DNA of 63,517 nucleotides, filler included, from Atractiella rhizophila (taxonomy: Eukaryota), in assembly GCA_021432655.1 (NCBI GenBank). It is 6 parts of 6 records of this genome, joined end to end, with 100 filler letters (N's around TTAATTAATTAA, not from the genome) between each part and the next. Parts side by side here need not be neighbours in the genome. Positions count along the whole stretch, not along the records: positions 1 to 25,299 come from MU271419.1; 5 more parts are not named here. One strand, 5' to 3'. The position numbers and the translations under genes are program-made. This document shows, piece after piece, positions 1 to 55,295 of the stretch. Below the pieces are notes generated by a model. The model was given only the letters and a program-made list of their open reading frames with translations, searched no databases and was not told the origin of the DNA. Every line of letters begins with the position of its first letter. The stretch's first letter is position 1.

Positions 1-1112
1 ACTGAGAGAAGAGAAATATACCTGGTGTAAGTATTTACAGCGCTTCCCAAATCTACAGCGACCCTTCACGAAATTTCGACAGACCTTCTTCCCTTGCTCA
101 GGATTGGAATCGACAGCCAAGTTCGCCGGTTTGATATCACTTTGAAGGATATTTTTTGTGTCGACAGGCTGCGTTTCGTCTTCATCTTCTGAGGAGGAGC
201 TCGAGTCGGAATCAGAGGAGGACGAGCTGGAGGAGAGAGAGGAGGTGTCGTCGGATGAATACATTACGAGCGCATCTGCCAACCCTGATGCTGGAGGTTT
301 CATCTGCTCTTGATCCATGGAGGACTCTGTAGGCTGTTCCTTCTTCTCGTCCGCTTCAGTTGCCGAAACTTTTCCACCCCTTCCCCTCCCTCTGCCCCTA
401 TCACCACGTCCTCTCCCACGTCCTCTACCACGGGTCCTCGAGTTGAGTCCGTTCTCAGGCATTGACGCTTCTTTCAGCTTGCGTTCTTCTTCCTGTCCAA
501 ATCCGCGACATCAGTGAATCAATTTCAGAAGAGTGAGATTTATGACAAACCGCCTGCTGCCTCCTCTCAGCCGTAGGGAACTTCTTCCTCCTCTCCTCTC
601 TCCACTTCTCGATCTCCTCTGCCGTTTCAAGCTTAATGTTTGTGCCTTCGATGCGCGGAGGAGGCCCACGCGTGAAATTGAAAGCTTTGATGGATTCGAT
701 GAAGAGGAGGGAGACCCAAGACGTGGGAGTTTCGCTGGCCGTTCCGCACGGTTCGAGTTCGAGTTTGAGTGCGAGTCCCATGATCGTTTCTGACCTCCGA
801 GTCTGCGATTCCTTCCTTCTCCAAAAGACGAAGCTGACCCTCTTGACTCCCTGTAGTCCAGATTGAGGTTCCCAACACCGGTGAAATCGGAGGGCGCTGT
901 AGGAGAGATCCCATATCCATCCGGCGTGAGGCGTTGCTGTTGTTGTACTCCCAAACCCATTCCTGGCATTCCCATTCCCATGTTCATTCCTTGATTCAGC
1001 CCCATGTTCATCGCCATACCCATCACGCCCATCGACGGGTATCCCCAAGTATTCATTCCGTTCATGAAAGGCATCTGCTGCTCGGGTTGGGGTAGAACTG
1101 CTGGTTGGGATA
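1..1112 (-). CDS. NUFIP1/Rsa1-like (FMR1-interacting domain) protein, partial; 5' part lies in the mirrored block (~2300-2446)
   Basis: IKLETAEEIEKWREERRKKFPT resembles the NUFIP1 domain. GT..AG intron at about 495-550, followed by an RG-rich then acidic/Ser-rich stretch. Apparent frameshift near 670 (probably a sequence error). Runs off the window start. Confidence 0.7.
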
Positions 1113-1137
1113 NNNNNNNNNNNNNNNNNNNNNNNNN

Positions 1138-2470
1138 GCTTGGAGGGGACGAGGTCGCCTCAGAGGTTTGACTCGTAGAGCTTTGAGAGAAAGTCTTGCA
1201 GAAGTATCGATGGTATATCTTAAAACCATGGCAGATAGTCATGCACCAGTACTGATGACCCCTCCTTCCTTACCTGCGTGACAAGCCCAACTGTTTTTTT
1301 ACCGCCGGGAAGAAAAGAAAGTAGACCTATACGATAATTCGGTCCATAAGATTTTGACAGTCCTTCTAACTTTCCCTACATGGACACCCGGTGTAATCTC
1401 ACTACTCTATAGGAGGAACCCACTATTCGCGCCGTATGGCGAACGGGGTTAGGCCAGAGTACCAACCACCCTCTCGGTGCTTCTTGGACTAATCCTGGAA
1501 ATTACAAGATAAATTGAACTTAATTTTTTCTTTATGTTTGCACTTTAGTATACGCTCTGGTTTTGGGTGGTCGCCCCCTACCCCTTGAACTTCTTCAGCA
1601 GTGTCTGCATAAAGTGGGAGAGAAAACGCCCCCTTAACGAGCGCAAACACCGATCGGTGAAGAGATGAAGTCAGTGAATAGTGCGGACCCTGTCTTGAGT
1701 GAAGGACGCGGAATCTCTGCCGACAACCTGAATACAGCTATGGGGTCGAAAGCTACAGTTCCTACCTTCGCTGTTCCTCCCCTAGTATGGGGACTTCTTT
1801 CTACTACTTAGCATACTTACACAATGAAACGGACTTTCGTGTTACGAATGGGAGGGTGTAGGTCGATGGTTCCGTGCAGGTAGGGAACCGGTAAGTTGAG
1901 GTCGTCCTCCTCTAAAGTTATATCGAAGCTCACGCCCAACTCTCGCTCGTAGCAGGGTTCCGATTGCCAGTTCAGTAGTTACTTTGTATACTGTGCTGAC
2001 CAATCTAGCTGGGTGTCAGCATGGAACGAAGGTTCAGGGTAGGGTAGGGAGTCGGCGATCCTGTCTCAAGTAGGCAAACTCGACAAGAAGTGCTCCTTCC
2101 TAACCTCATCGGTAAAAGATGTTTGCTGCTTCTGGAGTCGACGGGATATACTATACTATACTACCATGTCCAAGCAGGGTGCCAGACGCCAGTCAGCCGC
2201 TTTGCTCTCTCGCCTAACGACGCCCTAAATAAATAGGTCACAAACCCAAACCTAGAAAATATACAACGTCGCTGTAAAAAATTGAGGCTGGCGGACGTTG
2301 AAAACTCATAGACTAGACACCGTGAGAGACGTAGTTATGGTACCGCGGTAAGGAGTTGGCAGGGGAGATAAGTGAGATTAGGAGTTGGTTGGATAGGGAG
2401 GGTCGGTAAGCACGTTGGAGTCGGAGTCTACTACGGTTACGTACGTATAGGGTTGGTCGTCAAGATGGGG
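1138..2470. other. Mirrored block A (reversed, not complemented)
   Basis: 2447-2470 (atagggttggtcgtcaagatgggg) is the exact reversal of 1089-1112 (ggggtagaactgctggttgggata). Its plain complement encodes SNPQPTYPSQPFVQPQPQMMPMHAYPNQQFYP, which continues into the NUFIP1 gene. Confidence 0.9.
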
Positions 2471-3431
2471 GTAGGGATCAAAGATTGCGGTTTGGAGAAG
2501 AAAGTAACGTCTGGAGGTTACACCAAGCAACCCTAGACTGTCAAGGCTCAAGATGTAGCGCCGCGTAGTCACATCCTGCAGCTGAGAACATAAACTATGA
2601 TAAAAGAACAACGCGTTCAAATGTGTCCAAGAATGTGGGAGCAGGAAAGACTCGTAAATGATACTTTCTGTCCAACCCTCAAGTTTCAGCAATGTCACGG
2701 TATCCAAGTGAACCAAGGCCAAAAAAAGTTTTTCTTCAGTGGCGCTGGACGGACAGACAAGATCAACGGAAATAATGGGTGATTGAAAATGTAGAGCATA
2801 TTTGCCAAGTAAAGGAGATCAATCATTCTTTGGTTCGAATCCAAGAATCCAATGGGAAGCAAAGTGAAATGTAACCGTTTTAACAGGTCCAACCGCAATA
2901 TATCCTAGGTCGAAGTATAGCGTCCGAATGAGGCACCCATTCTTCAGCATAAGCATATCGCTCTAGTAGATGTGGAATAAAGCCTGACAGTTCAATTCAG
3001 TCTGAGGAGAGTGTGAGGAAGCCATCTGCGCAAGCGAGTAGGGTCAAAGTTTCAGCCGTATTGAGCAGATTCTTACTGCAATTTTTACTGCAATTTCTTG
3101 AAGAGTTAACTCAGGGGCGTGACTCATCTAAAGAGATATCTAAAAGGGCAGGCAGTTCCTTCTGAGTTCAAACGTTCAGTGTTCACAGTCAGGCCAGTCA
3201 CTAGTCAGGTGTCTTGATTATGGATCAGGGTGACTCATGTGACTCACTTCATTCCCTTCCAAGTTCGTCTTCAAAACCCGCGTTTCCATTTCTTCATCTC
3301 GATCTCCCAAAATTCAGCGCCTATCCCTCTCACCGCAAACGCGATTGTACTTGTATAGAGGCTGCTTTCGGCTTACACAAGAGAGATTTCAGAGTATTCA
3401 GAGTTTTAAGAGATTCAAGAGTTCTAGCAAG

Positions 3432-6400
3432 ATGGCGAATGTTGGTCCTGGCAAGGAAAAGGAGGAGCTCGTGAAGATGGAAAACGTGGGTTCTTCTGTC
3501 TGCCTCCTTGGTAGGATTGCGGGGCTAGATAGATTGGAAAGTGGCTAGTGTCACGGCTTGAACAATCTGCTTTAAATCGAGCATACCAACATCTTGAACT
3601 ATAAAAGTGTTCAACATGGATGTAGAAGCTAGCATTTGCAAAAGACGTCGTTCTGCTCTCATCTTTCTATTTCTTTTCGTAAGGAATGCCACACAATAAT
3701 TAAGGTGTTCTGTAGCTGATATTTATTTCTGACCAGACCACCAGACGAGACTACCTGATATCAATAGAGAAAGCCGTACAGAAGCGCTGGAAGGAAGAAA
3801 AAGTATTTGAAAGCGAGATTCCGACAGATGAAGCGGAGTATGAGAAGAAGGACAAATGGTTTGGGACATGTGCGTTTATTTTTCTCATTTTCATCGATGG
3901 AGCTGATGGATGCTGATATTAGTTCCTTGTAAGCTGCATCGTGTATTCAGTTAGTGAATCTCTGACGCTCTGCAGTTCCATACATGAATGGTTCCCTGCA
4001 TCTCGGACACTCGTTTTCAATTACGAAAATCGAGTTCACAGCTGGATACCAAAGGATGTTGGGCAAAAGGGTGCTTTTCCCCTTCGGATTCCACTGCACC
4101 GGTATGCCAATCAAAGTATGTTGTTCCTGCACTTGCTGTGCAGGATCTCATCGTCGCCACAGGCTGCAGCCGACAAAATCGTCAGAGAGATCGAGCTTTT
4201 TGGAGAGGACTTTTCAGGGTACGATGCTGAAGTTAAGGCGGACAAAGCGGTAGCGTCTTCCTCGAAAGCCAAATCAACCGATCAGAGCAAATCGAAGAAA
4301 GGGAAAGTAGCAGCAAAGAATACAGGTCTTCAGTACCAATTTCAGATCATGGAAAGCATCGGAGTGCCAAGAGAAGAGATCAAGAAGTTCGCTGATGCCA
4401 AATATTGGCTTTCTTACTTCCCTAACGTTGCTATTGTAAGATGTTTGTTTATTTCATTTACAAGATGACTGAGTGTAGGAGAGTAGGAAGACCTCACCAA
4501 CTTTGGAGCACGGATTGATTGGCGCCGTTCTTTCCTTACCACAGATATAAACCCTTGGTATGATTCCTTCGTCCGATGGCAAATGAACCGTCTACGAGAG
4601 CTCAACTATGTCAAATACGGGAAACGGAATACCATTTACTCGGAGAAGGACGGACAACCTTGTATGGACCACGATCGATCCAGTGGCGAGGGAGTTGGGC
4701 CACAAGAGTACACAGGTATCAAGATGGAGGTAGTGGAATGGGGAGAGAGGGCGGAGGAGATCAAGAAGATTGTTGAAGGAAAGAAAGTGTTCTTCATCGC
4801 CGCTACCCTCCGACCCGAAACAATGTACGCGCAGCCCGTCGTTTGTGTCCTTCAATAGAACGCGCTGACAACGAATAGGTACGGTCAAACAAACTGTTTC
4901 GTCTCTTCGACTATCAAGTACGGTATCTTCGCCTCGGACAAACCGAACGAGTATTATCTGTGCACTCATCGAGCAGCCCGGAACATGTCGTACCAAGATA
5001 TCCTGAAGGAGAACGGAAAAAGAGATCTACTTGTTGAGGTGAAAGGAGAGAGTCTCATTGGCACGAAGATCAAAGCTCCATTGTCTGTCCATCAGCAAGT
5101 CCACATTCTTCCTATGGAAACAGTCCTGGCAACTAAAGTAAGTGTGCTCCTTACGTCCCAGATTGATACTGACCTTGCGAGTCAGGGCACCGGAGTTGTC
5201 ACCTGCGTGCCTTCCGATTCACCAGACGATTGGATTACCCTGGCTGAGCTGAAAAAGAAAGCACCTTTCTACAAAATCGATGCTCTCTGGGCATCCGCTG
5301 AACCGATTTCCGTCCTCTCTACTCCTTCCTACGGCGACATGTCTGCAAAAACCCTTTGTGAACAACTCAAGATCAACTCTCCGAAAGACTCCAAACAACT
5401 TCTAGAAGCAAAGGAGAAGGCATATCAAGAAGGTTTCTACAAGGGCACCATGACCATTGGACCATACAAGGGGCAGCCTGTCCAAGATGCGAAGGAGAAG
5501 GTGAAGAAGGACCTGCTCGACGCTGGGGACGCATTCCTCTACTTCGAACCTGAAAGTCTTGTCATGTCGCGAAGTGCGGATGAGTGCGTAGTCGCGCTTT
5601 GCGATCAGTGGTATCTCGATTATGGGCAAGACGGCTGGCTGCAGAAAGCGGAGAAGTGCGTTGCTCCTCTCATCTTCTACGATTGCTTTATGAGAAAATA
5701 GGCTCGTGAATCGCATGGAGCTCTACAACCCTGAGACACGTCATGCCTTCAATCATGTCCTTGGCTGGCTTCATGAATGGGCGTGCTCGCGAACATACGG
5801 ACTGGGAACAAGGATCCCTTGGGATCCCCAATACCTCGTTGAGGGTCTCAGCGATTCCACGATCTATATGGCTTACTACACCATCTGCCACCTTCTGCAC
5901 GGTGAGAGCTTCCCCGTTTGCTTCTTCTGTGAAGAGGCTCATGAGGAAGCGATGGACAGGATACCCTCTCCACGCTGCGACTGAAGGACCGCTGGGCATC
6001 AAGCCTGAAGAAATGACGGACGAGATTTGGGACTATCTATACAGCGGCAAACCATTCCCTGAAAATCCGTCACCAGCCTCGCTCTCGAAGGAGAAAGCGG
6101 ACATACTCAAACGACACTTTGAATATTGGTACCCTATGACGATCCGATCTTCAGGTAAAGACCTTATCGGAAACCACCTTACATTCTGCATCTACGTTCA
6201 CTGCGCACTCTTCGACGAAAAACATTGGCCCCTTTCCATGCGAGCAAACGGTCATCTTATGATGAATGGAGCGAAAATGAGCAAGTCGAGTGGCAACTTC
6301 GCCACTCTTAAAGAATGCACGGTCAAGTACGGTGCTGACGCGACAAGGATGGCCCTGGCTGACTCTGGTGACGGAATGGATGACGCCAATTTTGAAGAGC

Positions 6401-7513
6401 AAGGAGCCAATGCTGGGATCTTGAGGCTATTTGTGCTCCAAGAGTGGTTCAAGGTCGGTCTTCCGCCCACTCAGGTAATACAGGCTAATATGAAGACATA
6501 GGAGATGATGACGACGAAGGATCAACTTCGCACTGGGCCGAAAGACAAATTTTATGACAAAGTGTTTGAGAGCGAGATCAACTCAGCAATTATTAAAGCT
6601 AAGGAAGCTTACGAAGTGTTCGTTCTCTCCTCTGTTGATCCTGATCCGAGACTAATATGTCTACAATGCAGGAGTTCGTTCAAAGACGCCCTGAAATACG
6701 GCTTCTTCGAGCTACAACTCGCACGAGACTGGTATCGCGAAGCCTGCGCACACGATGGTGGCATGCACGTCGACCTAGTTATGCTCTTCATCCGTGTCCA
6801 GACACTACTTATGGTTCCCATTATGCCACACATCACGGAGCACATCTGGAGCGACGTCCTTGGCGAGAAGACGTCTGTCCAGTTTGCCCGATATCCTGAA
6901 CCGACCTCCGCCGTCGACCGGATCATTCTAGACCAAGCAACGTATGTACGGGACGTAATCAAGAACGCGAGAGATGGGGAGAACACTTTCATTCGGCGCA
7001 TGAGCAAGAACAAAGATAAGAGCCAGTCTTATGCGGCGAACAAGAAAAAGGGAGTCAAGATCTACACTTCAAGCAAGTTTCCAGAATGGCAGGAGAAGTG
7101 TGTCGCGATTGTGAAAGAGTCTTACTCTACTGAAGAGGCAAAGGTGAATGATGAGCTGGTCAAGAATAAACTAGCCAGTTCAGGGATGCTAAAGGACAAG
7201 AGAGCGGTATGTGGCTTCCTCATCGCCTTTCCCACTTTCCTTGACGAGAACGAAACAGATGCCATTCATCCAAGTATTCAAACGGCGAATCACACAGTTT
7301 GGCGCAGACACTGCTTTCAACCGTACACTCCTTTTCGAAGAGCGAACTCTGCTAGAGTCTCTTGTGCCATACCTGAAGCGTGCGCTCGCTTTCGACGAGG
7401 TGGTCATCGTTAGTGTCGAGGATGGCCAGAAGGATGGAGAAAAGGACACAGAAAAGACGGCACGAGAGGCTAGCGAACCAGCAAACCCAACTTTTGTGTT
7501 TTATAATTTGTAA
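3432..7513 (+). CDS. CDC60: Cytosolic leucyl-tRNA synthetase (multi-exon)
   Basis: [11 protein letters not shown] (HIGH motif), GFHCTGMPI, editing-domain AATLRPETM and [20 protein letters not shown]. Canonical introns link the ORF pieces. Confidence 0.97.
3528..3698 (+). ncRNA. Candidate intronic structured RNA (H/ACA snoRNA-like)
   Basis: Lies in 251-nt intron 1 (3486-3736). Hairpins agattg/caatct with inner gtggc/gtcac, and ttgaac/gttcaa. ACA at about 3691-3695. Confidence 0.3.
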
Positions 7514-7815
7514 ATGCTTTGTCTAGACTGTTCTACTGTCAAGACGTAGCACTAAAGCACCTTTCAACCCATTTTGACGATTTTGACTCCATTTTATCTG
7601 CAGTCTTTCTTGCTTGTTTGGGTTGAGCACACATTCCGCACCAAAACATATCAGCTATATCAATCAGAGATGCTGAGGGCAAATCGACCCTCTGATTCAA
7701 GTCTCAGCTCGAAGGGTGGCGCCGTTCATAACAACGTGATGCAAGGTGTTTGAAGGCGGTCGGATTCACGTGAGCTTATTTCTTCTTTCAGATTGACAAC
7801 ATTGTCCTTTGTAAG

Positions 7816-8893
7816 ATGTTAGGCAAGTCTATGGTTTCTTGATGCGTATTCTTTGCTGACAATTCAGCAGTTGTTGGCCTAACAGGAGGAATTGCATCCG
7901 GTCAGTTCTTCCTCCCTCCTCCTTCTGTGTGATTATCATGTTACAATTCACCTCAGTTCACCTTGAGCATACACTGCAGTGAGCATTCGCTGCACTGAGA
8001 AGTCGCATCAGCGAAGCTGTATGCCCTACTCTTCTGACAAGTACTATTAGCTTGTAACGTCTGTTTCTTCAAAACGTCGACATGTTTGCGGGATTGGGAG
8101 CAGGACGCCTGCAAGTTCTGCAATACCCATGTTTTCGGTGGATATAAAATAAAAACATGGATATAAAACCATCAATTGTCTTAGCTAATACTATATGGCA
8201 GGCAAATCCTCAGTGTCCTACATCCTCCACTCACACGACATTCCAATAATCGACCTTGATGTTCTCGCCCGCGAAGCTGTTCTCCCCAACACATCAGCAT
8301 ATCGACGTATCGTCAAGCACTTTGGGTCCCCTGTAGTCGACTCCACGACCACTCCGCCATCCCTCAACCGAGAAGCTTTGGGAGCCATCGTCTTCAAGGA
8401 TGAGAAGGAACGAAAGATTCTGAACCGTATCGTCCATCCCGCCGTTCGACGACTTCTGTTTTGGAAAATTATCAAGCACTGGATCACCGGGTCCAAGATC
8501 GTCGTTGTCGATGCTCCTTTGCTCATCGAAGCAGGCCTCTGGCGTCTCTGCGGCTCCATTGTCCTAGTGTATACCACTCCTCCTCTCCAACTCTCTCGGT
8601 TACTCTCTCGAAATCCGCACCTATCCGAGCAGCAAGCGAAGGAAAGGATAGCCGCGCAGATGCCTTTAGACGAAAAGAGGAAATGGGCGGATTGGACAGT
8701 GGAGAATGTGGGGACGAGAGAAGAGCTGGAGGAACAGGTGAAGGATGTTTTAGAGCGGCTGAGTGCTCACATTGGAGGCGTTGGATGGGCTTTGTGTTGG
8801 CTAATACCGCCAGTCGGTGTGGTTTGGGCGTTGGTCAAGGTCGGGTATAGGTTAGGGTGGAAGAGGGTGGGAAGGAAGAAGAAAGTCGAGTGA
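7816..8893 (+). CDS. CAB5: Dephospho-CoA kinase (CoaE/DCAKD) with C-terminal hydrophobic tail
   Basis: Spliced N-terminus MLVVGLTGGIASGKSSVS (GC-AG intron 7823-7870, intron 7901-8201). Also LNREALGAIVF, IVHPAV, DAPLLIE, RIAAQMPL. Confidence 0.95.
7925..8041 (+). ncRNA. Candidate intronic box C/D snoRNA
   Basis: C-like GTGATTA at 7929, internal CTGA at 7995, terminal CTGA at 8034, all inside an oversized 301-nt intron. Confidence 0.4.
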
Positions 8894-9047
8894 TGAATAA
8901 ACCTCTCTGTTGCTGAGTGTTAGTATTACCTTCTTGAAATGGCTCGTCGTGTGAATCTTCCTTATTAATCGTTTGACAGCAAGACATTACATTTACTTTG
9001 TTGAATCTACATCACAAATACAAAATAAACTTGGCCTATATTCCAAA

Positions 9048-10762
9048 TCATGTGGCGACATGTGATGCTTTAGCAGCTTCCGGCTATACCAAACCGATTT
9101 AGCACAAAAAGGGAAACGAGAGGAAGCGTACCCTAGAACTTTCGGGCAGTGCTTCGGTCGGGACCGATAAATCGTCACCCAATCCAGTCTTAAGATAAGC
9201 CGGTATCTCGTCTTTCTCCTCTTCAAGTTCATTTCCCAGCGCCTCGAGCTCCGCCTCCAAGTCCGCCTCATCCACCTCATCCGGCGTCTCATACGTTCGG
9301 CCCATGATTTCACCGACCTCCTGAGTTTGCAGGATGAGATCCTCCATCTCGTCGTGCAGTCGCTCAATCTTATCGATGTTCACTTTCCCATATTGTTTCT
9401 TCATCTCCTTATTGGCCACCTTCATCGCTTCGTAGGTCGCCATCGTGTTCCGTAGATTGTCGGTCATGAGCGAAGCTTGCTCCATGTTGAACGTTGTCTG
9501 CTGCAGCTGAGCGAGTTGTGACTCGTAGATTCGCTTCTGCTTTAACGTCGATAATGCTCGTGTCTGCACGGCACGCTATGGAGAACGGTATATCAGCACA
9601 GGTTTTTTGACCACACGTCATAAAGAGAGATGGATCCTTGGTGTCATTGCTTGTTCTCCTAAAAGTAACATGGAGGCGTCAACAAACCTCCGCACAATTG
9701 ATAATTTCGAATCCTGAAGATATTTCTCCAGAATATTTTCCCTCTCGGCTCGTTCAAAGCATTGTTAACAGAATGGAAGGAAAGAAAACAGCAGGTAGAC
9801 TACGACTCGTCCGAGGAGTGAAGGAGAGTAAGAAATGACTTCAGATTAAGGAGGAGCCTTGTCTGAAGGTATGCTTCTCTACACTTGCCGTGATCAGCTG
9901 TGCGAGAACCAACCCTAGCTGTGAGGTTTGTTGATACTGACAGAGCTTGGAATATGATCTTCTTTCGATGGTATGATACGTATTCCCCGTATTTCATCTT
10001 TAAAAATCGCATCTCAAGCAACGAAAATTCCTCAGTTCTTTCTCTGTTAGATAAGAAGAACAGAAAAATGCTAGTCAGTTCGACCTGGAATACCGCTGCG
10101 CGGAAATGTCCCGACGCCATATTCTCATATCAGCCTTCAGCTGCAACGCACAGAATGAGCCAGCTTGCATCACTGGAAGGCAAAGAGAGTTGAGTGCCTA
10201 AATTTGATACTTTTCAACGGTGAACCTTCGCCTTCCCTGTATATGAGTCTGCTTTGCTCACATCTGCTTCGCCCTCTAATATACTTACTCAGTTGCACTT
10301 CGTTTCTCTCAGAATCAGTGCACTACACTACAACAGCTCAACTGCTCAACTGCAAACAAACGAAGAAAAGGCGAGTGGAGAGAGAGAGCAGGGAAGGAGG
10401 CATTGATGGTACGCAAGAATGCTGCCATTCTGTCGATACAGGCCTCTCATCTCGCACGAAAAACACAACCATTCCTCTCTGTTCCGCTCAGGAGCACAAT
10501 GGACTGTCTTCCCTTCAATTCCAATGTAGAAAAGCGCGCACCTTCCCCGGCCCGTCCCTCAACTTTGACATCTGTTCCTTCTGCTTCCTCAAATCCCCAT
10601 CCAACTTATCAATCTTCTTCTGGATACCTTCCATCCGCTCCTCAGTGCTCCCTATCGCGTCCTTAATGGACGGTGGCGGCGCTGAGGGCTTGGAGCCAAA
10701 TAGACGGTTCTGCGCCGTTCCCCATAAGACAACTAGTGGAAGATGGAAGTACGGCGTACCAT
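9048..10762 (-). CDS. VPS60: ESCRT-III Snf7-family protein Vps60/CHMP5
   Basis: M|NRLFGSKP..KLRDGPGK|RAVQTRALSTLKQKRIYESQLAQLQQTTFNMEQ..DEADLEAELEAL. Contains a 966-nt intron (9576-10541). Confidence 0.93.
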
Positions 10763-10946
10763 GACGCTTTGGTGGTGTGATACAGGATCTAATATTACTG
10801 TTGTGACTCTCTCCCCTCACAAGTTCCGACCACCTAGATAAGGTTACGTCGTGGTCAACTTTGCGTAACCGATTCCCACAACCACCAAAACTGCTTCTGG
10901 CTTATCTTTGTCATTTTTCTTCCCTTTCACAGTCAAAATTAGCCAA

Positions 10947-11335
10947 ATGACATCTTATTCTTTCCCCCTTGCCACCGCACACACTGTATCTCATATTACA
11001 GTGCCTCGAAGCGCAAAAAATGCAGGCAAGATATCCGCTGGTTTGTCTTTCCGTGACACCATCTTCCAGTGCTGACGTTCTTCTGTTGGTGCGATAAAGC
11101 GGTGACCTGCGGCGTCGTGGGGATCTTCTGGACGGCGTGTATAATCTTCTGGCTCATCAAGCGGACGGGACGGCCAGTTGTGAACCCTTTGACGATGGAG
11201 GAGGAGCAAGTGGATCAACAAGCTTTGGAGGAGAATGGAAAGGTTGGTGTGGGTGGAGTTAAGACGAAGGATTATGGGGAGGTGAAGGAGGTGCAGAGGA
11301 AAGGGACGAGGAGTGAGAAGGAGAAGTTGTCATAA
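10947..11335 (+). CDS. Small single-pass membrane protein, unknown function
   Basis: ATG at 10947, plausible intron about 11042-11099, hydrophobic VTCGVVGIFWTACIIFWLI, charged tail. Confidence 0.45.
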
Positions 11336-12627
11336 ACAGTTTCTCTCGCCTTTTTGGTAAGTTTTGTGACCTTTTCAGCGTGACGAGGACACTGAATTTT
11401 GTTGTTGCTCTATGATAGAGGCTCCCCTCACCATCTACCTTTACTTTTCCATTGTGACTTCGATGAGGGACTGAAGGAGACGACGCCGGGCTTCTCCCCA
11501 CACTCACCGATCTCCTTCTCACTGTTCGTCTGTATCAACCTCCCAGCTCGCAACTATGCGACCACCAACTCCACCTCTATCCTAAAACCCACACTCCATT
11601 CTAACCGCCGCCTAATCACCAATCCAACATTCCAACATGAGCTGTAGGCGCATAATCTTCACGCTTCTTTCTTCTTCCTTCTTCTCTTCGGTTTAAGTTT
11701 CAGGACGATGTGTATAAGAGACATGAAATTCATGTAGCCTGCAATTTTCTTCTTGCTAATTTGGTTGTCGTTATCCTGTCAGGTCAAGCTCGATCTTCAT
11801 AAAGACATCCGGCCGCTTACAAGACTTTGCTCAGACCTGTTCACAGCAGGAGGAAGGCTTGGCTCGTTCGCGCCTTGGCAGCATGACATTCTTCCCGCAA
11901 ATGAATGACACGGATCGACCAGCTGAGGGAATGGTCTTTGCTGCCCGTCAAGTCAAGGAGGAGTTGGAGCGAACAGCTTTGAGAGCTTTAAAGTTGCGGT
12001 TGAAGCGGGACAAGTAGGTAGGCAGCCTCTGGTGAGCATCCATCATCTACGTTTATGCATGTGAGAGCCTTGGGTCTTGGATTGGATTGTAGTTAGGTCG
12101 AGAGAGGGGATTATAGAATCCCTGAGCTGTGGTATCAGGCCCAACACAGGGAGAAAGGCGTTGCGAGTGCTGCTCGCTATGAAACTGCTATTGAAGCTGT
12201 GTTCGACCATGTTAGGGCCACTGTGAGGAACGGATCGCGATGCGCACCTAACATATTAGTATATCTACAGGTCATGTCATTAGTAAATCATTCAGTCATT
12301 GATAGTCTCTTTCGCCTCGCTTTGGCCTGTTTGTCTTTGGCCTGTTTGTCGTTGTCCCAAGGCGACAACACCACCGGTGTGAAAGCTCTCTGTGAGGAAG
12401 ACGCTTTGATAGAGCAAGTTGCAAGTTGCAAGGAAGAGGACAAGGCACATTTCATGGTAGCTCAGAATAACTTGCACCTTGTTAACGAGTTTCTAAGGGT
12501 GGAAATGTCCATTTGTTCAACTTTAGTATCCTGTGTGCGACAAGAATTGACTTAGACAAGTATACTCAGGGCCGGATAGGTGCTTGCACTTAGGTTCATT
12601 TCTTTGCGCGTTAGGGTCAAATAAAAC

Positions 12628-15201
12628 ATGTTCACTCCTTCAGCATTGTCCCAGCTATCGATCAACCTTGTATCCCCCATCATCTTTGCTCGTCCCCTCA
12701 CTGGTGCCTCCGACACCCTCAGAGGCACCATATCTCTAAATCTGCACAAAGCCAGGAAGGTGAAAGAGATTGTCGTCACCTTCCGGATCCATTGTACATT
12801 CTCGTTCTCCGGCTGGTCGACGAGGCCGTATTCGCTTGTCGAGAAAGAATGCAGCATTGGGATCGATGGAGAGCTTGCAAAAGGCAACTACTCGTTAGTC
12901 ATGCCTCATATGAGATTGTAGCTTCAGTGACTGAATAGAATAGTTTCGACTTTGCTTTCGACCTAGTTCCCAGTGTAGCACCTGAAAGTCGTTGTCGTCA
13001 TGGTAAGATTTGGGCCCAGGTTTGTCTTCCTTCATTTGTTTTCATCAATGGTTTAACATTCTGCGGTCAGGTGGACGCTGTCGCCAAAAACGGAGGCTTT
13101 GCATCTAACTTGACCGCCTCGTCCATGATCGAAATTGTAGCTACCCCATTTCAGGAAGGTGATCCTCCGCCTCCACCAGTTCAAATTGAAGAGTTCACAC
13201 CTGATCTTGGTGTGCGCACTCTTCTTCGCATCATTCTTAAGCTCAGATGAAGGAGCAGTTACTTTTGATCGACTTCGGCTCAGCTCCTCCCACTGTTGGA
13301 GAAGCTCTCAGCGTTGAATTCTGCCTCCATGCAGCACCGTTGACGCTGCGTATGGAGAGGCTAGAACTCTTCCTCCTTCAAACTCTTGAGCTGCACCATC
13401 CGCTCAATCCAAAAAACATTGCCTGCCTTGAACCCGCCAAGCACCGCTTATTCCGACAAGGAAGGATGTTTTCAACTCAGCAGGAACAAGATGATACTTG
13501 GATGATACGACAAGGCTCAGCCTGGTCCTTCAAGCATTTGGCTAGGTAGATCATCACACTTTGCAGTGTCGTTCCATGTTTGTACTTTGGCTGATGCTAG
13601 GAATTAGGTTTCCGCAGAACGACAGGATTTGTCCTTCGACACTCGAGGGCACGATATCCCCCATCCGATCATCTACATCTTTGTTGTTTGAAGTCACCTA
13701 TCGTCGCGTGAACGAAGATGGGAGTCAAAAAGCAGGGGAAGAAGGTGCAGCAAAAACGCTCTCTCTGACCAAAAAAATCATAATAACATCTTCTGTCCAT
13801 TTTTTTATCCTACTTTCCTCACTCCGCGTCTCGCTAACTTGAATGCATATTTCAGCGGTGCTCCGGTCCAGAAACGCAAATCGAATCAGTCTCTCCTCCT
13901 TCACATATCTCTTCCAGCCCGAAGTCAAAAGTGCCGGCGCTCTCCATCACAACCTTAGCAGAGTGTATCATCCTCCGCCCGCCATTTTCGGCAACGCAAG
14001 GACCCATGATTAGAGGTCTTGTCTTCTTAGATCTGCCTACAACGCGAACAGTCGATGAAGTCGCCGTATCTCTCACCGCGCGATATCAACTCACTCTTCC
14101 AGACCAAGCGGAGCGACAGCCTGTTAAACTTTTGCAGAAGGTTTGTAAGGTACCAATCAAGAAATGCCTAGAGAAAGGTGAACATCAGTACGAAAGACTG
14201 CCGCCTATACAGTTATGAGCTAACTGATGGATTCAATATAGGTGTTCTTTTTCTTTTGTTATCCCATCAAATGCGCCGCCTTCAGAGCTTTGCCTTCAGG
14301 GTAAAATATGGTGGGAGGTTGGTTGGTTCAATCTTCACTCTCTTGCGGCTGTACCGACCGTCAACTGTGGAACAGTTGAGTGCTAGGGCGAAATGTACCG
14401 GAAGTTCCGATATTACTGGTGTGGGCAAATTAGAAGTAGTGGCAGACCCAGTTCCACCTATCGAGACAGGAGATGCCCTTGTTGATGTTCAAATCGAGGA
14501 TTTCACTACCGACCTGGGTGTGCGTCTCTCTTTTTCATGTTGCTTGCGATGAGGCTGAGGGATACCCAGCCTTTCAAACTTGACTACCATTCTCCCATTC
14601 TTAGGCTGGGTGCAGAATCGACCCTCGATTTCATTTTGAAAGAACCTCCTCATGACATTAGAATCGATAAAGTTGAACTTCTTGTGCTACAAGCATTTAG
14701 TCTGCGTGATCATAGGTCTAAGAAGGTCACTGGTTTTGATCCTGTTCGGCAAAGCCTTTTTAAGGATCAACGAGGGTGGTTTGCGGCCAAAGACAGAGAA
14801 TGGCACTTCAGGGAGGCAGTAAAGTACTCTTTTGAATTGTTAAACCATTAACGTTGTTACTGAGCTCTGGAATAGGGCGCCAGATGTGGAGTATATCCGT
14901 CCCACAACCCCAGAAGACTCGGCCACTCCAATTCGAAGCACTTCGTCGCTACTGTTCGAGCTCACGTATCGTATCATACGCCACGATGGAAGTGTCGACG
15001 ACGCGAGAATTGTGTCGCTCAAAAAGAAGATTGTTGTTTCACCGGTGAAGCGTTCCCCTCGAATGTGATATGTAAAACTTATAATCGGGTCAGCGCTCTT
15101 GTTCAATCGAGGACAGATCTCTTCCTTCATACAACGAACTTTTTTCTGTCACTCCTACCAGTGCATCTGTTGACCCTTGCGATGATGACCCACTCTGTTA
15201 A
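12628..15201 (+). CDS. Arrestin-fold protein with two tandem modules
   Basis: LRGTISLNLHKARKVKEIVVTF..LAKGNY|SFDFAF and IRGLVFLDLPTTRTVDEVAVSL..LEKGEH. Both modules carry VQIE(E/D)FTxDLG and PIRSxxSLLFExTYR with matching intron positions. C-terminal LPSY. Confidence 0.7.
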
Positions 15202-15839
15202 ATCCAACGAATTTAATCGCGCTGGAGGATTTTCTTGACCTTGGAATAAGCCTTTCATTGGTAACCCTGGCTTCCATGTTCAGCGCTGCCTGTGACGATT
15301 GTTCCACCTTTATACCCTCTGAAGCTGTGATTTGGAGAGCATCCAGTGATTTTGAATAAAGTGATTCCTTTGATGGGTCTGTTCTGTATCTATGAAGTGG
15401 AGGAGCATTGCTGCAAATCCAAAACTGGCGATGACTGCATAGTTCAAACAGGGAGTGGTTCCCTACCATATACCTCCAAAGATCGGATATGAACTCGTGT
15501 AATTGAGCGATAGTCAGCTCCGGAAAGCTCTTCACAGTGATGCTTGATCCAAGCATTCTCCAGGTCTTCCAGAGCTCCGTCCAACTGCTTCCAGAGCCTC
15601 ATGCGACGAGTCGCCATCAATATTGTCACCATAAGCATCCACGGGAACTAAAATGAAACCACTGATTTATAATTACAGAACTCCAAGAGTTTTCAAGCTC
15701 AAATTGGAGTGTTGAAATGGATCGAAATAAGCTTCAGACTTTCAATTTACTCTGTTATCCAGCCTTATCCATCACGCAACACTACCAATCTCTCTCCTAA
15801 CAATCCATCCAGTGTTGTTTACACCTTCCTGTCGTATCC

Positions 15840-17479
15840 ATGGCTGGCTCGCCACTCGTCTGCACTTTTGGGATGTTCATCCTCGACCAATTCCGCTACG
15901 AGGACATTTGTCCTTCAGATGCCAGCGTAAATGATCGCATAACAGAGCAGATCGGAGGAGGAGGAACATAGTGTGTATTTATATCCCTGGTGGCTCGAAA
16001 CAGAAGCTGATCAACACAATTGTGAGATAAGCAACTGTCGGAGCTCGANNNNNNNNNNNNNNNNNNNNNNNNNTAAACCAGCTACCCTTCTTCTTCTACT
16101 ACCGCTTCTTCCTATTCCTCCCACTCTTAGTCCACGACAACTTCAACCTCTACAACCCTGTCCTCCCACACCCTAAACTACGCTTGCCCTTTAACTACTT
16201 CTTCTTGAACAACACCCTAGGACGCTTCCTCGATATTAACGAAAACTATTACATTTGTTTAAATAAGTAAATAAGAACATTATGGTCGGGGACAAGAGTT
16301 GTTCTCATGACGTTTACGAAAGTATAGATTTAGATAAGAGACAAGAGTAAATTTTCACACAAGAGTCGCTCAAGATGGCTGTGGAGTAAAGGAGGTTGGA
16401 GGCAAGACGTCTAGCTCCGAGGTGCCAGGGGGTAACGAGTCGAGGAGGAAGGAGGGCTCTATCTCGCCCGTCTGGTATAACGACTTACTACTTTGACCGC
16501 GAGTGCGAGGGACGTGCATGCCGTAGTTTCTATAGGTTAAGCAAGGGGGGAAGATTAACGAAACGCTTGCGTCGGTAATTAGGAGGGATGAGTGGGCAGT
16601 GCCACCTACAGTCAGAGGTAGTGTCTCTCTCGTCCCAGTTCCTTCTTACTCCCTCCCTTGCTTGCTCCTTTGGCAACGGACGAGGTCAGTGCAGATGTTA
16701 GAAGAGGAAGAGGAGCCGTCCCCTGTTTCTCCAGGTTATTCCGCGTTAGGTTCGGAAAAAAAGCATAGATGAAGAGTGCTTTCGGGGTACGAGGGGTGTC
16801 GCATGCTGTTGTAGAGGTGGTGGAGAGCATCAGAGGCAAGGGTTAGGGTACAAGTGTTTAGCAAGCCGGTGGAGAAGTTAGTGGAGAGACTTCACTCTGC
16901 TTCTTCCTTTGCCGTCGACCGACCTTCCTTTCTTCTTTAAACGACGGAGGTTTACCAACCCTCTCTTTTGTCGCTGGAAGAAATATGGCAGAACCTCGCT
17001 CCGATTGAGAAGTCCACATGTTGTTAGACCCTAGCCAAGTATGTGATCCTGTCCCAGGGTTAAACCCATGAAGCATCTCCTTCTTAGTGTTTACCTTCTT
17101 TAGAGCCTCTACTACCACTCGCGGCGCAACCCCTTGTCTATTTTACATTCTTGGACCCATCCCTTCCATTCCCACCTCTTTCCCTCTCATCCAGTTCCCC
17201 TCTCTCTGCAGCAGCTCCTCACTCTATAACTTTTGGAGCTCTGGGCAGCTCCGCCATCTATAAGTCACGGACGAGCACCAGAAACTTAGTCAATTACGAG
17301 CAGGCTTCACTACCCTGACCCTCCTTCCTTACTGTGGAACCATCAAAGCGCTCAGCATAGAAGGGCCATCACGGTACGAAGCCGCGGCATCCTTAGCTCG
17401 AAAAGAACGGGGTGAGTATCACGAAGGTCAGCACTGGTGCCAGTTGCTAGTACTCATCGAACCTCCCCGAGTCTTTGTA
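15840..17479 (+). CDS. PfkB/ribokinase-family protein, Mak32-like; exons after 16048 lie in the mirrored block and read 17479 to 16374 without complementing
   Basis: Normal part: MAGSPLVCTFGMFILDQF..QIGGGGT..TVGAR. Reversed part: MFLSPSKLLMIVDRG..VYEPIPDCCTPEEL..FSPNHLEA..VVVRCGEHG..IVDVTGAGNGFL|GGL..SVSASFIIQQYGLP..RRLEEMRCR*. Confidence 0.9.
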
Positions 17480-17521
17480 AGCTCGAGGCTGTCAACGAAT
17501 AGAGTGTAACACAACTAGTCG
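16074..17521. other. Mirrored block B (reversed, not complemented)
   Basis: 17480-17521 is the reversal of 16006-16048 (1-nt indel). Flipping the block in place restores two genes in frame. Confidence 0.97.
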
Positions 17522-18172
17522 CTAATCCAAAACATCCCTTGAATCCACCAATGAATAAATCGCTAGCAATGACCCTATGACAGGGCACTCTCGGCGCGAA
17601 GGGATTCTTCCTCAACGCCTGTCCGACCGCCTGAGCACTCCCACGTCCGTTCTTTCCCTGTTTCATGGATATGTACGATGCGAAGAGACCGTATGTAGAG
17701 ACGCGACCGACGGGGATGGAACAGGTGAGGGAATAGACGAGCAGGGAGAATGAAGAATGAGTAGAGGAAGGCGGTGGCGGATATGGAATGGGAGGAGCGG
17801 TGAGGGAACAGTCAATGACGGATGAGTGAGGGAGGACAGGGTACATGGGATCTGATTCGGACTTCAAGATAAGAGCTTTCTGTTTCTTTCGCCTGTTGCC
17901 TGAGGCTAAACGATTCCTTTAATTTGGACGACAACCATTACCACAAGCAGGGAAAACGCACTATTAGAGATGGAAATGTTAACCTCCTCCTCCTCTAAAG
18001 TTGAAGCATTGCGCTTCTTCCTATTTTTCGGCACTTCTTCACATCTTTCGTCTTCCAAATTCCTTCCCTCTGCCTCCACCTCTTGCATAACACCATCCTC
18101 ATAGAGATCGGGATTGGTAAGCTTCGAAACAATCTGAAACTGCATGTTGACGGGATAAATATTTCGACCCAA
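17522..18172 (-). CDS. MGT1: O6-methylguanine-DNA methyltransferase (DNA_binding_1 domain); last ~54 codons lie in the mirrored block at 16074-16237
   Basis: IPVGRVSTYG..SAQAVGQALRKNPFAPRVPCHRVIAS with the active-site PCHR. Continues in frame as ..GL-DLVDGKK..KLEMLGQEGVGFDANGKL..LWDPAKEL*. Start codon uncertain. Confidence 0.9.
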
Positions 18173-19341
18173 GAAAGGAGGTCAACAAAAGAAACCTGGA
18201 GGAATATTGTGCCTTTTATAAGAGTGAAGGTGGGACGCGACGCGTTGCTGACTCACTTCATTTGACTACGTCACTTTGAACTCCCCAAGCCGTTTATTGC
18301 TTTTATTGTGTGGAGCTGAGCTTAGTCACCCGTCACTCCTTGTCAACCATTCTTCTTGCTCGATTCTTCGTCGCCCTCCGTGGAAAGTCAAGTCCGTGGC
18401 TCAGGGATACTATCCACCTCCCCATCCCTTATCTCCATCCGTCACTCACCTCGCCCTCCTATCTTTTACGTACGGACCCGGTCGTGAGAATTGGGGATCT
18501 GGGCAGAGTGATTGGACATACGGAAAGTGCACGGAAAGCGGGAGGGAGCAGGGAATCTTTTCAGAGTCCATTTTGCGAGGAAACTTGGACATATAACCGG
18601 AAACCGCACTGTAAACTGTGTATTTGTTGAGTTGGGAAGTCAGGAACTGCGTAAGGAATTCGAGAGGTTAGCTTTCTTTGCAGCTTTGTTAGAGGTTCTG
18701 CATAGTTCTTGCTTTCTTGTTCTCTTTCGAGTAGAAGTCGGAAGTTCTTGATTTCACTCCCGAAGACGGAAGGCGAGCGAGAAGCACGTCTTTGTTGAAC
18801 TAGAAGTGCAAAGGTTATTCGCCCAACTGTAACCGTGCGCTCGCTTTAAAGCTCTCAGTCCTTCCATGAAAACCGATCCCCCCGGCCAAAAACCTGAACA
18901 ATCTCAAACCAAAAAAAAGGACAATCCCAAAATCAAAGGACGGCCCCTTTCCGCAGCACCTGTCTCTGCGTACTTTGACTTCTGGCATGGACCTGAGACA
19001 ACGCATTGAGCGTAAATTTGACGCGTTTGATTCAGCTCATGCCCTGTACTTCCCTGTTTCACTTGACCATCGTATTCGGCCATACGATCCGGATAACCCT
19101 CGACGCTCCTTTGCAAGGGTTAACTGCATTTGTTCCGTGGGAGATGAGGTGCATTGCATGAGAGCACAATACAAGAGATTGTACGCATTTGCCGGTTTGG
19201 GGTTCCTGTCTAATTAGAGACCAAGCGATTTTCTGCCTTGTTTTACAGTCTATTAAAAGCGTCCAACTCCTTTCTCTCAAACCTCTGTAGGATTGTTGAC
19301 TGAAGAATCTCAATTGGCTGCGACCAACAGAAGCATCGAAA

Positions 19342-25299: not shown

Positions 25300-25399
25300 N
25301 NNNNNNNNNNNNNNNNNNNNNNNNNNNNNNNNNNNNNNNNNNNTTAATTAATTAANNNNNNNNNNNNNNNNNNNNNNNNNNNNNNNNNNNNNNNNNNNN
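25300..25399. other. Artificial contig spacer N44-TTAATTAATTAA-N44 (also 36904-37003, 53412-53511, 55196-55295, 62101-62200)
   Basis: Identical 100-nt stop-codon linker occurs five times, and flanking genes are truncated at it. Confidence 0.98.
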
Positions 25400-26770
25400 A
25401 TGATATCCTCTACGAGCTCGGGATGTTTAACCCTTCGAAGGATGAGTTATCTAACGCGAAGGGAACAGATGCCTGCTTACGGCCAGAATAAGGAGCCGAA
25501 ACTGACAATCACGACGGAGCGTGCGCCAAACTTCGACTGCATCTCGTCAAGGAAAGCAAAATCGGAAGCGCCTTGGGGAGATGCTCGACTCTGTTTTATC
25601 CAAGTGCCATCCCAGACGGCTGTGGACTGCTGAGCGCCGACGAGGAAGATGGCCTTGGTGCCGTAATTTTCCCTTGCAACTCGAAGAAGTTCTGGCGGTT
25701 CCTATGCACCCGAAATCACGCATTTTCAACCCACAGGAGTGACACTCACAAATCCCTCAACAGAATGCACAATCAACCCGTCACTATCGCGATCGAGCTC
25801 CAACATGCCTTCGAAATTGGCTGCGATGTTGCGGGTTTCAAACATGTGATGAGGGTTTTGTTCATATTGATATCGGATCGGGAAGCCTGGAAACTTGTGT
25901 AAACCATCACTGAAGCGTGGATTCTCCCTGATAAGCTATGACAGGCATAACATAGAACAGTCAGCACCGATCATGCCTTGGTGAAGGTCAAAAGGACGGA
26001 CCTCGTCTGTTATGTCGACGAGAGAACGCTGTCCTCGTTTCTCAGGATTCTCAAAGATTGCTTTCGCTTCACCCGGGATATGGGTCATCCCTCCATCTTC
26101 AGGTCCGAAAGTCATACTTCAATGATACATCATCAGCCTCCAATGTCTCGCTCTTTCAAGGAAATACATACTTGCACCACGCATAAAACGGGAATGAAAC
26201 CCAGTCCAGGCACTTCATACTATGCTTCCCTTCTCTTCTCAGCCTCGTTGAGATGGCACCAATAGCGAAGTCCTCCCAGATGACTGTAGGGATGGGCCAC
26301 TTCTCGCCGTTCGCCTCCTCAGCATAGTGCACCGTTCCTTGTACATCTGTAAACGGTTTTCCCTCCTGTAAGGCGGGCAAGAGCTGTTCGACGGTTTCGT
26401 ACATTGCAGCTTTGCAGATGAGGACGAAAGCGTCGGAAAAGTCTTCTTTCACTTTGGGCTTCCCAACTACGACGAAACGAATAGAATCGAGGATTGAAAC
26501 CCCCTCGCCTGTGACCTTGAGATCGTTCTCGTGTTGCTCGAATTCAGCCTTTGCCATGGGCAGCACGTGCGGTTCGATGACGATGGAGAAGACATGCCCA
26601 GGGAAACGACGGATAACTGTGGAGATGATAGTGAAGAGTGGACGGAGGTGACCTGCATTTTCAATCTTCAGTTGGTTTCACACATGCAGGGACAATGTGA
26701 GGAGGAACTCACCCCATGCTGGAAGCGTGAGAACGACGGTATGAGTGTGTGGACTATTAGAGGCGGTCAT
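25400..26770 (-). CDS. UDP-glycosyltransferase (GT1), copy 1, 3'-truncated by spacer
   Basis: HTVVLTLPAW|GHLRP N-terminal motif and VIVSFGSLFWP. Near-identical to copy 2, which retains the PSPG-like box. Confidence 0.85.
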
Positions 26771-28232
26771 TTCCGGAACTTGGTTGACGGCTGTTATCGC
26801 GAGGTGTAAGCTCAAGTTATTCGTCCTCCCTTTAAACAGACCTCCATATATCCACATCACGTAGCAGGATGCGAACAATCCTCTGGAGGAGCATGTTGCT
26901 CAGCGTGGATAAATTTCGGTCGGTGGAAAATGCAAGGTGCGAGGAGGAGATCAAGCTTTGTATTCCGAGACGACGGAGCGAGCAAGGTGTGCGTTCGTAA
27001 ACAAACTCGCACGAAGGAACCGATAGTGCTATCAAATTCGACTCGATCGGCGAGATAAAAACGGTGAAGGTGGGCAAGTGTCCGGGCAAGGGTATTTTGG
27101 CTCGATAGTGGTGATACCTGTACTGAAAATACAAGGGTAGATTAGCAAACCCAGTACAAGACGCTGTCAGTGGAGACAAGCGTGGCATGGAATGCACTGA
27201 CAAATTGAGGAAGTAAGCCTCCTGGGCATCATCAATGTTCACATAGAAGGGATGTTTCAAGTTTAACTCGTTCCATACCCAACATGGGCCGTCATGCATG
27301 TACTGCACGCCTGGAAAGTACTGGTATTTTGAGCAATGGAAATGTCTGTGCATTATCATCATCTCATCGCTGTCTAAAAAGACTATGTGACCTTCGTTCA
27401 CGATAGACGTGATATTACAAACTCATATGTAATATTCAGATTCATACGTCTAGTTAGGTCTAATCTCTGAAAGAAAATTGGTTTCGTATAAATTAGTGTG
27501 TAATGCATAGGACAAGGCCCGGCAAGCAATGCAACAAGCAGCCATAGCTCAAAAGTGCATCCCTCAATTGACAGTGAATGCACTGAAAGTAACCATAGCC
27601 ATAAGGTACCGTGAATGTTAATCGGTCAACAGCTAACTGAATAGCTAACAGGCCAGCATGCTCATGCTCAAACATCAAGGCATGAGTGAACCCACGTGAT
27701 TCGTGGTCAGGAACTAGAACCAACCACACACACGACGAAGGACGTTTCAGTCCTCCAATATCTACGCCTAGCCGCACCAAACTAATCGCATATAGCTGCC
27801 CGTGAGTTCTTCTGCTATGGTGCGCGCGAACTGGCACGATAACGAGGATTAGGACGTTTGGGTATCAACGCTCCTTCGACGCAACGACATAGTGTCTTCT
27901 AAGGGACCTTTAGCTTTCAAACGCGACAAGATGGAGGACGAAACGCAGTACGCACTATTTACAAGCTCAAAACGATTTGGTTAATGAGTTATGCATTCAG
28001 GGTGTTCGGAAGCCTGGAAGACGAGTTGGCGCACTACCGTTCTCTCTCCCAATCGCTATCTGCAACCTTAGAAGATACTCGTTCCGCCTTAGAGGACTTT
28101 CAGTCGAGCAGCAAGGAGCTGGAGTATGAGCTGGAGAGGGAGCTGGCGAGCACTGAGGTGAGGGAGAAGGAGTTGAAGGCGAAGGTGGAAAGGTTGGGGG
28201 CGGATGTGGAGGATTGGAAGGTGCGCCACTTT
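25400..28232 (+). repeat. ~2.8-kb duplicated segment, copy 1 (partner 34079-36903)
   Basis: Collinear direct repeat starting atgatatcctctacgagctcgg and ending ggtgcgccacttt. Confidence 0.97.
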
Positions 28233-33772: not shown

Positions 33773-33797
33773 NNNNNNNNNNNNNNNNNNNNNNNNN

Positions 33798-35439
33798 GAT
33801 CGTGGGTAAGCCATTGATTATAGTCTCGATTGTCGAGTTCATTCCACCGTGATAGATGACAGTAGATACTGCCTGGTATCACTCTTCAGTTCAAGTTCCT
33901 ATTTATGACTGGGCACGAACTGAATGTTGGAGCACCGCTTGTTGGTCCACCCATGGGCTGAATCTTGCTCTTCCAGATTCCTCTGCCTTCCTCACTAAAT
34001 CTGGCGAGAGGTTTGCATTCGGCGAAGCAGATACAAAGATGAACGGAATTTGTGGTTCGAAGTCGAGTAGAGTCTGAATGATATCCTCTACGAGCTCGGG
34101 ATGTTTAACCCTTCGAAGGATGAGTTATCTGACGCGAAGGGAACGGATGCATGCTTACGGCCAGAATAAGGAGCCGAAGCTGACAATTACGACGGAGCGT
34201 GCACCAAACTTCGACTGCATCTCGTCAAGGAAAGCAAAATCGGAAGCACCTTGGGGAGATGCTCGACTCTGTTTTATCCAAGTGCCATCCCAGACGGCTG
34301 TGGACTGCTGAGCGCCGACGAGGAAGATGGCTTTGGTGCCGTAATTTTCCCTTGCAACTCGAAGAAGTTCTGGCGGTTCCTATGCACCCCGAAATCAGGC
34401 GCTTTCAACTCACAGGAGTGCTACTCACAAATCCTTCGACAGAATGTACAATCAATCCGTCACTATCGCGATCAAGCTCCAACATGCCTTCGAAATTGGC
34501 TGCGATGTTGCGGGTTTCAAACATGTGATGAGGGTTTTGTTCATATTGATAACGGATCGGGAAGCCAGGAAATTTGTGTAACCCATCACTGAGGCGTGGA
34601 TTCTCCCTGATAAGCTATGGCAGGCATAACATAGAACAGTCAGCACGGATTATGCCTTGGTGAAGGTCAAAAAGGACGGACCTCGTCTGTTATGTCCACG
34701 AGAGAATGCTGTCCTCGTTTCTCAGGATCCTCAAAGATTGCTTTCGCTTCACCCGGGATATGGGCCATCCCTCCATCTTTTGGTCCGAAAGTCATACTTC
34801 AATGATACATCATCAGCCTCCAATGTCTCGCTCTTTCAAGGAAATACATACTTGCACCACGCATAAAACGGGAATGAAACCCAGTCCAGGCACTTCATAC
34901 TATGCTTCCCTTCTCTTCTCAGCCTCGTTGAGATGGCACCAATAGCGAAGTCCTCCCAGATGACTGTAGGGATGGGCCACTTCTCGCCGTTCGCCTCCTC
35001 AGCATAGTGCACCGTTCCTTGTACATCTGTAAACGGTTTTCCCTCCTGTAAGGCGGGCAAGAGCTGTTCGACGGTTTCGTACATTGCAGCTTTGCAGATG
35101 AGGACGAAAGCGTCGGAAAAGTCTTCTTTCACTTTGGGCTTCCCAACTACGACGAAACGAATAGAATCGAGGATTGAAACCCCCTCGCCTGTGACCTTGA
35201 GATCGTTCTCGTGTTGCTCGAATTCAGCTTGTGCCATGGGGAGCACGTGAGGTTCGATGACGATGGAGAAGACGTGTCCTGGGTAACGACGGATGACAGT
35301 GGAGATGATGGTGAAGAGTGGACGGAGATGCCCTGCATACTCAACGGTCAGTTTATTGCGCATGCAGGGAGATGGCGCGGAGGAGCTCACCCCATGCTGG
35401 AAGCGTGAGAACGACGGTATGAGTGTGTGGAGCCTTCAT
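33798..35439 (-). CDS. UDP-glycosyltransferase (GT1), copy 2, 3'-truncated by gap
   Basis: MKAPHTHTVVLTLPAW|GHLRP; SFGSLFWP; PWVDQQAVLQHS|AVSTVIYHGGMNSTIETIINGLP (PSPG-like box). Confidence 0.9.
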
Positions 35440-36601: not shown

Positions 36602-36903
36602 ATGGAGGACGAAACGCAGTACGCACTATTTCTAAGCTCAAAACGATTTGGTTAATGAGTTATGCATTCAGGGTGTTCGGAAGCTTGGAAGACGAGTTGG
36701 CGCACTACCGTTCTCTCTCCCAATCGCTATCTGCAACCTTAGAAGATACTCGTTCCGCCTTAGAGGACTTTCAGTCGAGCAGCAAGGAGCTGGAGTATGA
36801 GCTGGAGAGGGAGCTGGCGAGCACTGAGGTGAGGGAGAAGGAGTTGAAGGCGAAGGTGGAAAGGTTGGGGGCGGATGTGGAGGATTGGAAGGTGCGCCAC
36901 TTT
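36602..36903 (+). CDS. NudE 5' fragment, second copy, cut by spacer
   Basis: Near-identical to 27931-28232. Confidence 0.85.
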
Positions 36904-40406: not shown

Positions 40407-40410
40407 AACT

Positions 40411-53411: not shown

Positions 53412-53511
53412 NNNNNNNNNNNNNNNNNNNNNNNNNNNNNNNNNNNNNNNNNNNNTTAATTAATTAANNNNNNNNNNNNNNNNNNNNNNNNNNNNNNNNN
53501 NNNNNNNNNNN

Positions 53512-55056: not shown

Positions 55057-55295
55057 GTCGAATACTTGCAACACGCTTTTGCTCTAGCTTTTGCTATGCC
55101 CCTGCGCTAATGCCGTGGTCCCTTCCTGCTTCCTGGTCGATGTTGGAGCTGATTGCTGCATCATTACGTCACAGCAGTACAGAATTGGAGTTCGTNNNNN
55201 NNNNNNNNNNNNNNNNNNNNNNNNNNNNNNNNNNNNNNNTTAATTAATTAANNNNNNNNNNNNNNNNNNNNNNNNNNNNNNNNNNNNNNNNNNNN

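Follow-up and report, generated by a model that had tools for sequence, protein, structure and literature searches.

A mirrored block in an Atractiella rhizophila assembly record conceals most of a PfkB-family kinase gene and the C-terminus of MGMT

In the window analysed here, a stretch of 63,517 nt joined from six records of an Atractiella rhizophila assembly, a plus-strand kinase gene faces a minus-strand MGMT gene, and the two break off at opposite edges of the same short region. The locus raises the question of what lies between them. We found that the 1,448 nt behind a 25-N gap (mirror block B) are written in reversed order with the bases left uncomplemented, and this is almost certainly an assembly artefact, i.e. 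an error of the record without new biology. The features of the locus are collected in Table 1.

Table 1. Features of the locus around mirror block B (positions count along the window; a dot marks features without a regular strand)
Feature	Position	Strand	Remarks
Kinase exon 1	15840..15970	+	43/43 residues identical to P0121
Kinase intron 1	15971..16031	+	GT..AG; inferred from P0121
Left contig end	16006..16048	+	mirrored copy at 17521-17480, one base fewer; overlap of fill and left flank
Kinase exon 2, start	16032..16048	+	ahead of the 25-N gap
25-N gap	16049..16073	.	directly left of block B
Mirror block B	16074..17521	.	1,448 nt in reversed order, uncomplemented; artefact
MGMT C-terminal 53 codons and stop	16074..16237	.	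left to right, complement only; identical to P0122 residues 191-243
Spacer between convergent stops	16238..16373	.	136 nt, mirrored
Kinase exon 4	16374..16586	.	mirrored; stop 16376-16374
Kinase intron 3	16587..16664	.	78 nt; GT..AG in mirrored reading only
Kinase exon 3	16665..17269	.	mirrored; DVTGAGNGFL motif at end; single-base frame break near 17123
Kinase intron 2	17270..17336	.	67 nt; GT..AG in mirrored reading only
Kinase exon 2, remainder	17337..17479	.	read right to left uncomplemented; single-base frame break near 17412
False tail	17454..17521	-	22 residues and stop, translated off mirrored DNA; in public protein P0001
MGMT main part	17522..18145	-	normally written; active-site PCHRV 17585-17571; intron about 17906-17961

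The mirrored order and its absence from public runs

The last 42 bases of block B mirror the 43 bases that precede the 25-N gap, with one base lost. Aligned in this way, 16006-16048 and 17521-17480 match over 43 columns with 97.7% identity (E 4e-12), while exact mirror words in three unmirrored control stretches were at most 15-17 nt long. As deposited, the block has no stop-free stretch longer than 94 residues over six frames. Reversed only, one of its frames reads as protein over 190 residues, and complemented only, its first 53 codons carry the MGMT gene onward. An order-4 Markov model trained outside all three mirrored blocks of the window (A, B and C) favoured the mirrored reading of block B by 54 bits. 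The edges 16074 and 17521 had already been given in the preliminary description, and both are exact.

Twenty public runs match the neighbouring DNA wholly or partly, and four of them (X1-X4) were aligned to positions 601-18600, divided into 30 bins. All four consist of assembled contigs rather than raw reads, X1 and X2 stem from one sample, and the runs may be the source of the record itself. Over 16201-17400, that is within block B, the depth is 0 in all four runs; the same holds for all 4 bins inside blocks A and B, and X1, X2 and X3 cover the remaining 26 of the 30 bins. A coverage hole alone proves nothing, so that the weight rests on the loose ends. Among the loose ends listed, those of X1 and X2 behind 16048 match the mirrored text, i.e. 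block B read backwards, in 30 of 30 letters, and those before 17522 do so equally well in X1, X2 and X3 (30/30). The contigs of X3, which we take as RNA because they show GT..AG joints, run from the MGMT gene into the mirrored text at the 17522 edge. X4 (share 0.11) covers 20 of the 30 bins thinly, with no block B loose end among the matches listed. As to the expectation that sequence data would contradict the deposited order, none of the four runs contains that order, and at the block edges the contigs of three runs depart from the record and continue in mirrored text. The DNA in the sequenced cells is colinear across block B.

The runs also bear on the idea that the mirrored order exists in the cell and arises by a reaction that copies DNA in reversed polarity. 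The record shows this order and the public protein P0001 is predicted across the junction; nothing else speaks for it, and P0001, itself predicted from a record that contains this junction, is not independent evidence. Block B occurs in no run, contigs cross both of its edges into the unmirrored order, and all blocks sit at N gaps, so that we regard a cellular mirror as exceedingly improbable. We know of no polymerase or recombinase that reverses 5'-3' order without complementing.

Two convergent genes in the turned block

In the turned block B we read residues 46-370 of a Mak32-like fungal protein of the PfkB family. The closest counterpart is P0121 ('Ribokinase-like protein [Atractiella rhizophila]', 370 aa), which was the one longer protein found in a protein search with exon 1 (100% identity); a Pfam search with exon 1 alone gave 0 families. 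In the deposited sequence only residues 1-43 of P0121 align, whereas residues 46-370 align too when the block is reversed, with 311 of 322 residues identical when the pieces are compared one by one and with the same exon junctions. For the family assignment the intact allele P0121 was tested and scored 42.9 bits against Pfam PF00294 (PfkB), above the gathering cut-off of 25.8. A protein search yielded 356 relatives at E<=0.001, and we built a profile from 118 other-species proteins of the 120 listed among these, leaving out P0121 and the 638-residue P0123. Inside block B this profile matched the reverse-only reading alone, in 4 pieces (best iE 1e-41), and on the six frames of the deposited sequence it matched only exon 1. 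The PfkB homology expected after reversal was thus found both by the alignment with P0121 and by the relatives, and the stop codon of the kinase lies precisely where it had been placed before.

The claim that reversal repairs both flanks at once holds for the two junctions and for the MGMT gene; the kinase keeps three frame breaks, and reversal alone does not open its frame. The kinase text from MFLSP to the DVTGAGN motif spans two introns and two single-base frame breaks (those in exons 2 and 3), where the relatives profile runs on and leaves no room for an intron. The third break lies in exon 1: the contigs of X1 and X2 carry two extra bases behind 15967 that are missing from the deposited sequence. 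For intron 1 there is no RNA joint among the joints listed.

One explanation of these breaks is that there are two haplotypes and that the kinase copy seen here is the dead allele of one of them, its three breaks being genuine and independent of the mirror. The breaks do remain after reversal, and the one in exon 1 lies outside the fill. Moreover, 11 of 322 residues distinguish the copy from P0121, and the MGMT copy departs from P0122 by about 5% (3-5% of residues for the two proteins), from which we conclude that the kinase and MGMT copies belong to a distinct allele. However, each break comes from the loss of 1-2 bases, in one case within a G run, and such deletions are the error pattern of long reads. 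The five aligned kinase pieces contain no in-frame stop and the splice sites are intact; in addition, the exon-1 bases that are lacking here are found in X1 and X2 with full depth, although variants get lost in contigs. A fourth single-base deletion is found in the flank copy within the fill, where the true text is known, and because the fill drops a base there as well, an error of a long-read consensus is likelier than a dead allele. We consider a genuinely broken allele unlikely, while allowing it some weight.

The MGMT gene is whole once block B is turned round. Residues 63-243 of P0122, a hypothetical protein of Atractiella rhizophila (243 aa; Pfam PF01035, TIGR00589 ogt), align gap-free across the 17521/17522 junction with 96.7% identity, and the last 53 residues are identical. 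The MGMT homology predicted for the reversed block is thereby borne out, and the stop at 16235-16237 falls exactly on the position given for it earlier. With PF01035 the MGMT frame of the window itself scores 65 bits (cut-off 27), and with TIGR00589 P0122 and P0001 reach 48.6 and 49.9, respectively (cut-off 46.4). The PCHR active-site motif, which with its Cys separates MGMT from Cys-less alkyltransferase-like proteins, is present with the Cys as PCHRV on the minus strand; methyl transfer from O6-methylguanine is putative. In the MGMT intron (17898-17962) two RNA-type joints skip 56 and 62 nt; the acceptors, a few bases apart, are alternative 3' splice sites, and the frame is the same with either. 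P0122 has the true C-terminal end of 53-54 residues, whereas its cluster mate P0001, a public protein of 211 aa, ends in a false tail, its last 22 residues stemming from mirrored DNA.

Both genes are recovered, with 136 nt between their stops, in keeping with the proposed convergent pair about 140 nt apart. Neither gene stands out within its known family, and annotation already exists for an intact allele of each, P0121 and P0122, whose accessions are consecutive and whose contig has the same length in both cases. P0121 is normally written and intact, in contrast to the kinase copy of the window with its 11 substitutions and three frame breaks. Misjoins, too, typically show a gap and a repeated flank. 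Even so, an explanation of block B by an ordinary inversion or by foreign DNA joined in error, with the mirrored genes appearing by chance, has practically no probability left: 311/322 and 53/53 identical residues and an iE of 1e-41 with relatives from other species are not chance. In a separate control, the reverse complement of block B restored neither gene, and an ordinary inversion was rejected as a candidate.

The Mak32-like label of the kinase is a provisional one that rests on motif likeness and on one database label, that of P0148 (Rhodotorula pacifica, UniRef label Mak32p; 43% identity over 367 columns). Basidiomycete PfkB-family proteins, including P0148, have the GGGGTY N-terminal motif and the DVTGAGN motif in common with the Atractiella rhizophila kinase, and they differ from it by ordinary divergence only. 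The PfkB signature consists of D-x-T-G-A-G followed by an Asp, which is catalytic. In the kinase the D-x-T-G-A-G part is present (16665-16700, mirrored), but Asn replaces the Asp, while the solved bacterial relative 3kd6_A has Asp at this position. The same Asn is found in 116 of 118 relatives (P0124-P0241, from the 120 listed among 356), and the motif is missing in the other two. As the Asn is common to so many relatives, it is a trait of the subfamily and not a peculiarity of this locus, and its presence across the basidiomycete subfamily suggests an altered chemistry or a non-catalytic role. With the bacterial ribokinase model the score is 25.6, far below the cut-off of 299.65, and phosphoryl transfer by the kinase to a sugar or nucleoside is putative. 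We found no paper treating MAK32 together with pfkB in the literature searched; an excerpt of PMC7090016 glosses Cryptococcus Mak3201 as involved in the upkeep of double-stranded-RNA particles.

Mirrored blocks at gaps and a possible origin

In total the window contains three mirrored blocks, A (1138-2472), B (16074-17521) and C (41639-45953), which make up 7,098 of its 62,157 non-N bases (11%). When 253 windows of 500 bases were scored with the Markov model for the deposited versus the mirrored reading, 27 were flagged, all of them on these blocks, and the preference for the mirror amounted to 55, 54 and 182 bits for A, B and C, respectively (model trained outside the blocks). A mirrored block directly adjoins three of the four 25-N gaps, in every case on the right-hand side and never on the left, and each block holds a mirrored copy of the left flank (24, 43 and 45 nt). 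At the fourth gap (33773-33797), which serves as an internal control, we found no mirrored block and no flank repeat longer than 10 nt.

Block A follows the gap at 1113-1137 and has depth 0 in all four runs; at its edges the loose ends agree with the mirrored text at 30/30 letters (left) and 29/30 letters (right). Turned round, it shows SAM-methyltransferase-like exons with an ALVAGCG motif, putatively thiopurine-methyltransferase-like, together with the 5' end of a gene on the minus strand, which runs on into 1112-300. For block C (4,315 nt), the right flank 45954-46048 directly repeats the left flank 41519-41613 over 95 nt, and parts of the block mirror 38331-38771 (88%), 40408-40814 and 52407-52577; from these matches and the repeated flanks it follows that the block holds repeats. 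Outside the blocks, two or three genes rich in introns lie in tandem at 12097-15068; their frames are similar (12939-13842 versus 14172-15068), their X3 coverage is low, and they are presumably arrestin-like.

The window also contains five identical 100-base linkers (25300-25399, 36904-37003, 53412-53511, 55196-55295 and 62101-62200), each composed of 44 N, a 12-base stop-codon motif and 44 N. They are artificial joins between pieces, and neighbourhood across them is therefore meaningless. The stretches 25400-28232 and 34078-36903 form a direct 2.85-kb duplicate (94.6%), one starting and the other ending at a linker, and are probably two haplotypes of one locus in tandem. The linkers reveal that the record was processed further, as would be expected if the mirror had been made after gap filling, during the joining of scaffolds into pseudomolecules, file handling or the preparation of the window. 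Yet they touch none of the blocks, while all three blocks adjoin 25-N gaps and have an overlap with the left flank, and P0001 places the mirrored junction in a public annotated record, so that preparation of the window is not its source. Such a later step appears quite improbable to us.

We favour an origin during gap filling. In the real, colinear DNA the PfkB-family gene on the plus strand and the MGMT gene on the minus strand converge, with the short spacer between their stops, and the draft assembly would have had a gap over this stretch. Gap filling would then have added 1,448 nt to the left end of the right-hand contig, overlapping the left contig by about 43 nt, and the extension would have been written with only one of two reverse-complement operations. 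The overlap, being mirrored, would have gone unrecognised, and hence the gap would have been kept as 25 N with the fill on its right. This order of steps is a reconstruction, and the fill itself, with its three single-base deletions, would be a low-coverage long-read consensus.

We infer that the gap filler was a program of the PBJelly type, in which overfilled gaps would be written as 25 N. The excerpted text of its description (English et al. 2012; PMC3504050) defines a gap as 25 or more N, lets long reads extend the flanks and calls gaps 'overfilled' when the extensions have no identifiable overlap. The blocks would accordingly share with PBJelly the 25-N gap definition, the extension of flanks by error-prone long reads and the gaps left open in the absence of an overlap, whereas mirrored output is not described in that excerpted text. 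Against the gap-filler account stand the fourth 25-N gap without a block and the different geometry of block C, whose 95-nt direct flank repeat lies beyond the block. A search of the literature, mostly outside subscription journals, found no description of a mirrored-fill fault, and mirrored fills go unmentioned in the excerpts of 10.1101/2020.05.22.110833, 10.1101/2022.10.27.514037, PMC6191289 and PMC7190621.

Consequences for the record and for other assemblies

Mirrored stretches escape both six-frame searches and read mapping. Gene counts and claims of gene loss drawn from this record cannot be relied on close to 25-N gaps, and in at least one case, that of P0001, a false tail has reached a public protein database. 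More tentatively, and we hold this to be possible rather than probable, a widely used gap filler may have an undescribed fault that writes right-hand extensions backwards. Many public assemblies would then hide genes in mirrored blocks and seed false tails like that of P0001, and such blocks would be detectable from the sequence alone by the forward-versus-mirror Markov score and repairable in place. Should other assemblies carry the fault, their hidden genes would be recovered by an inexpensive screen; the importance of the finding lies in data quality and not in biology.
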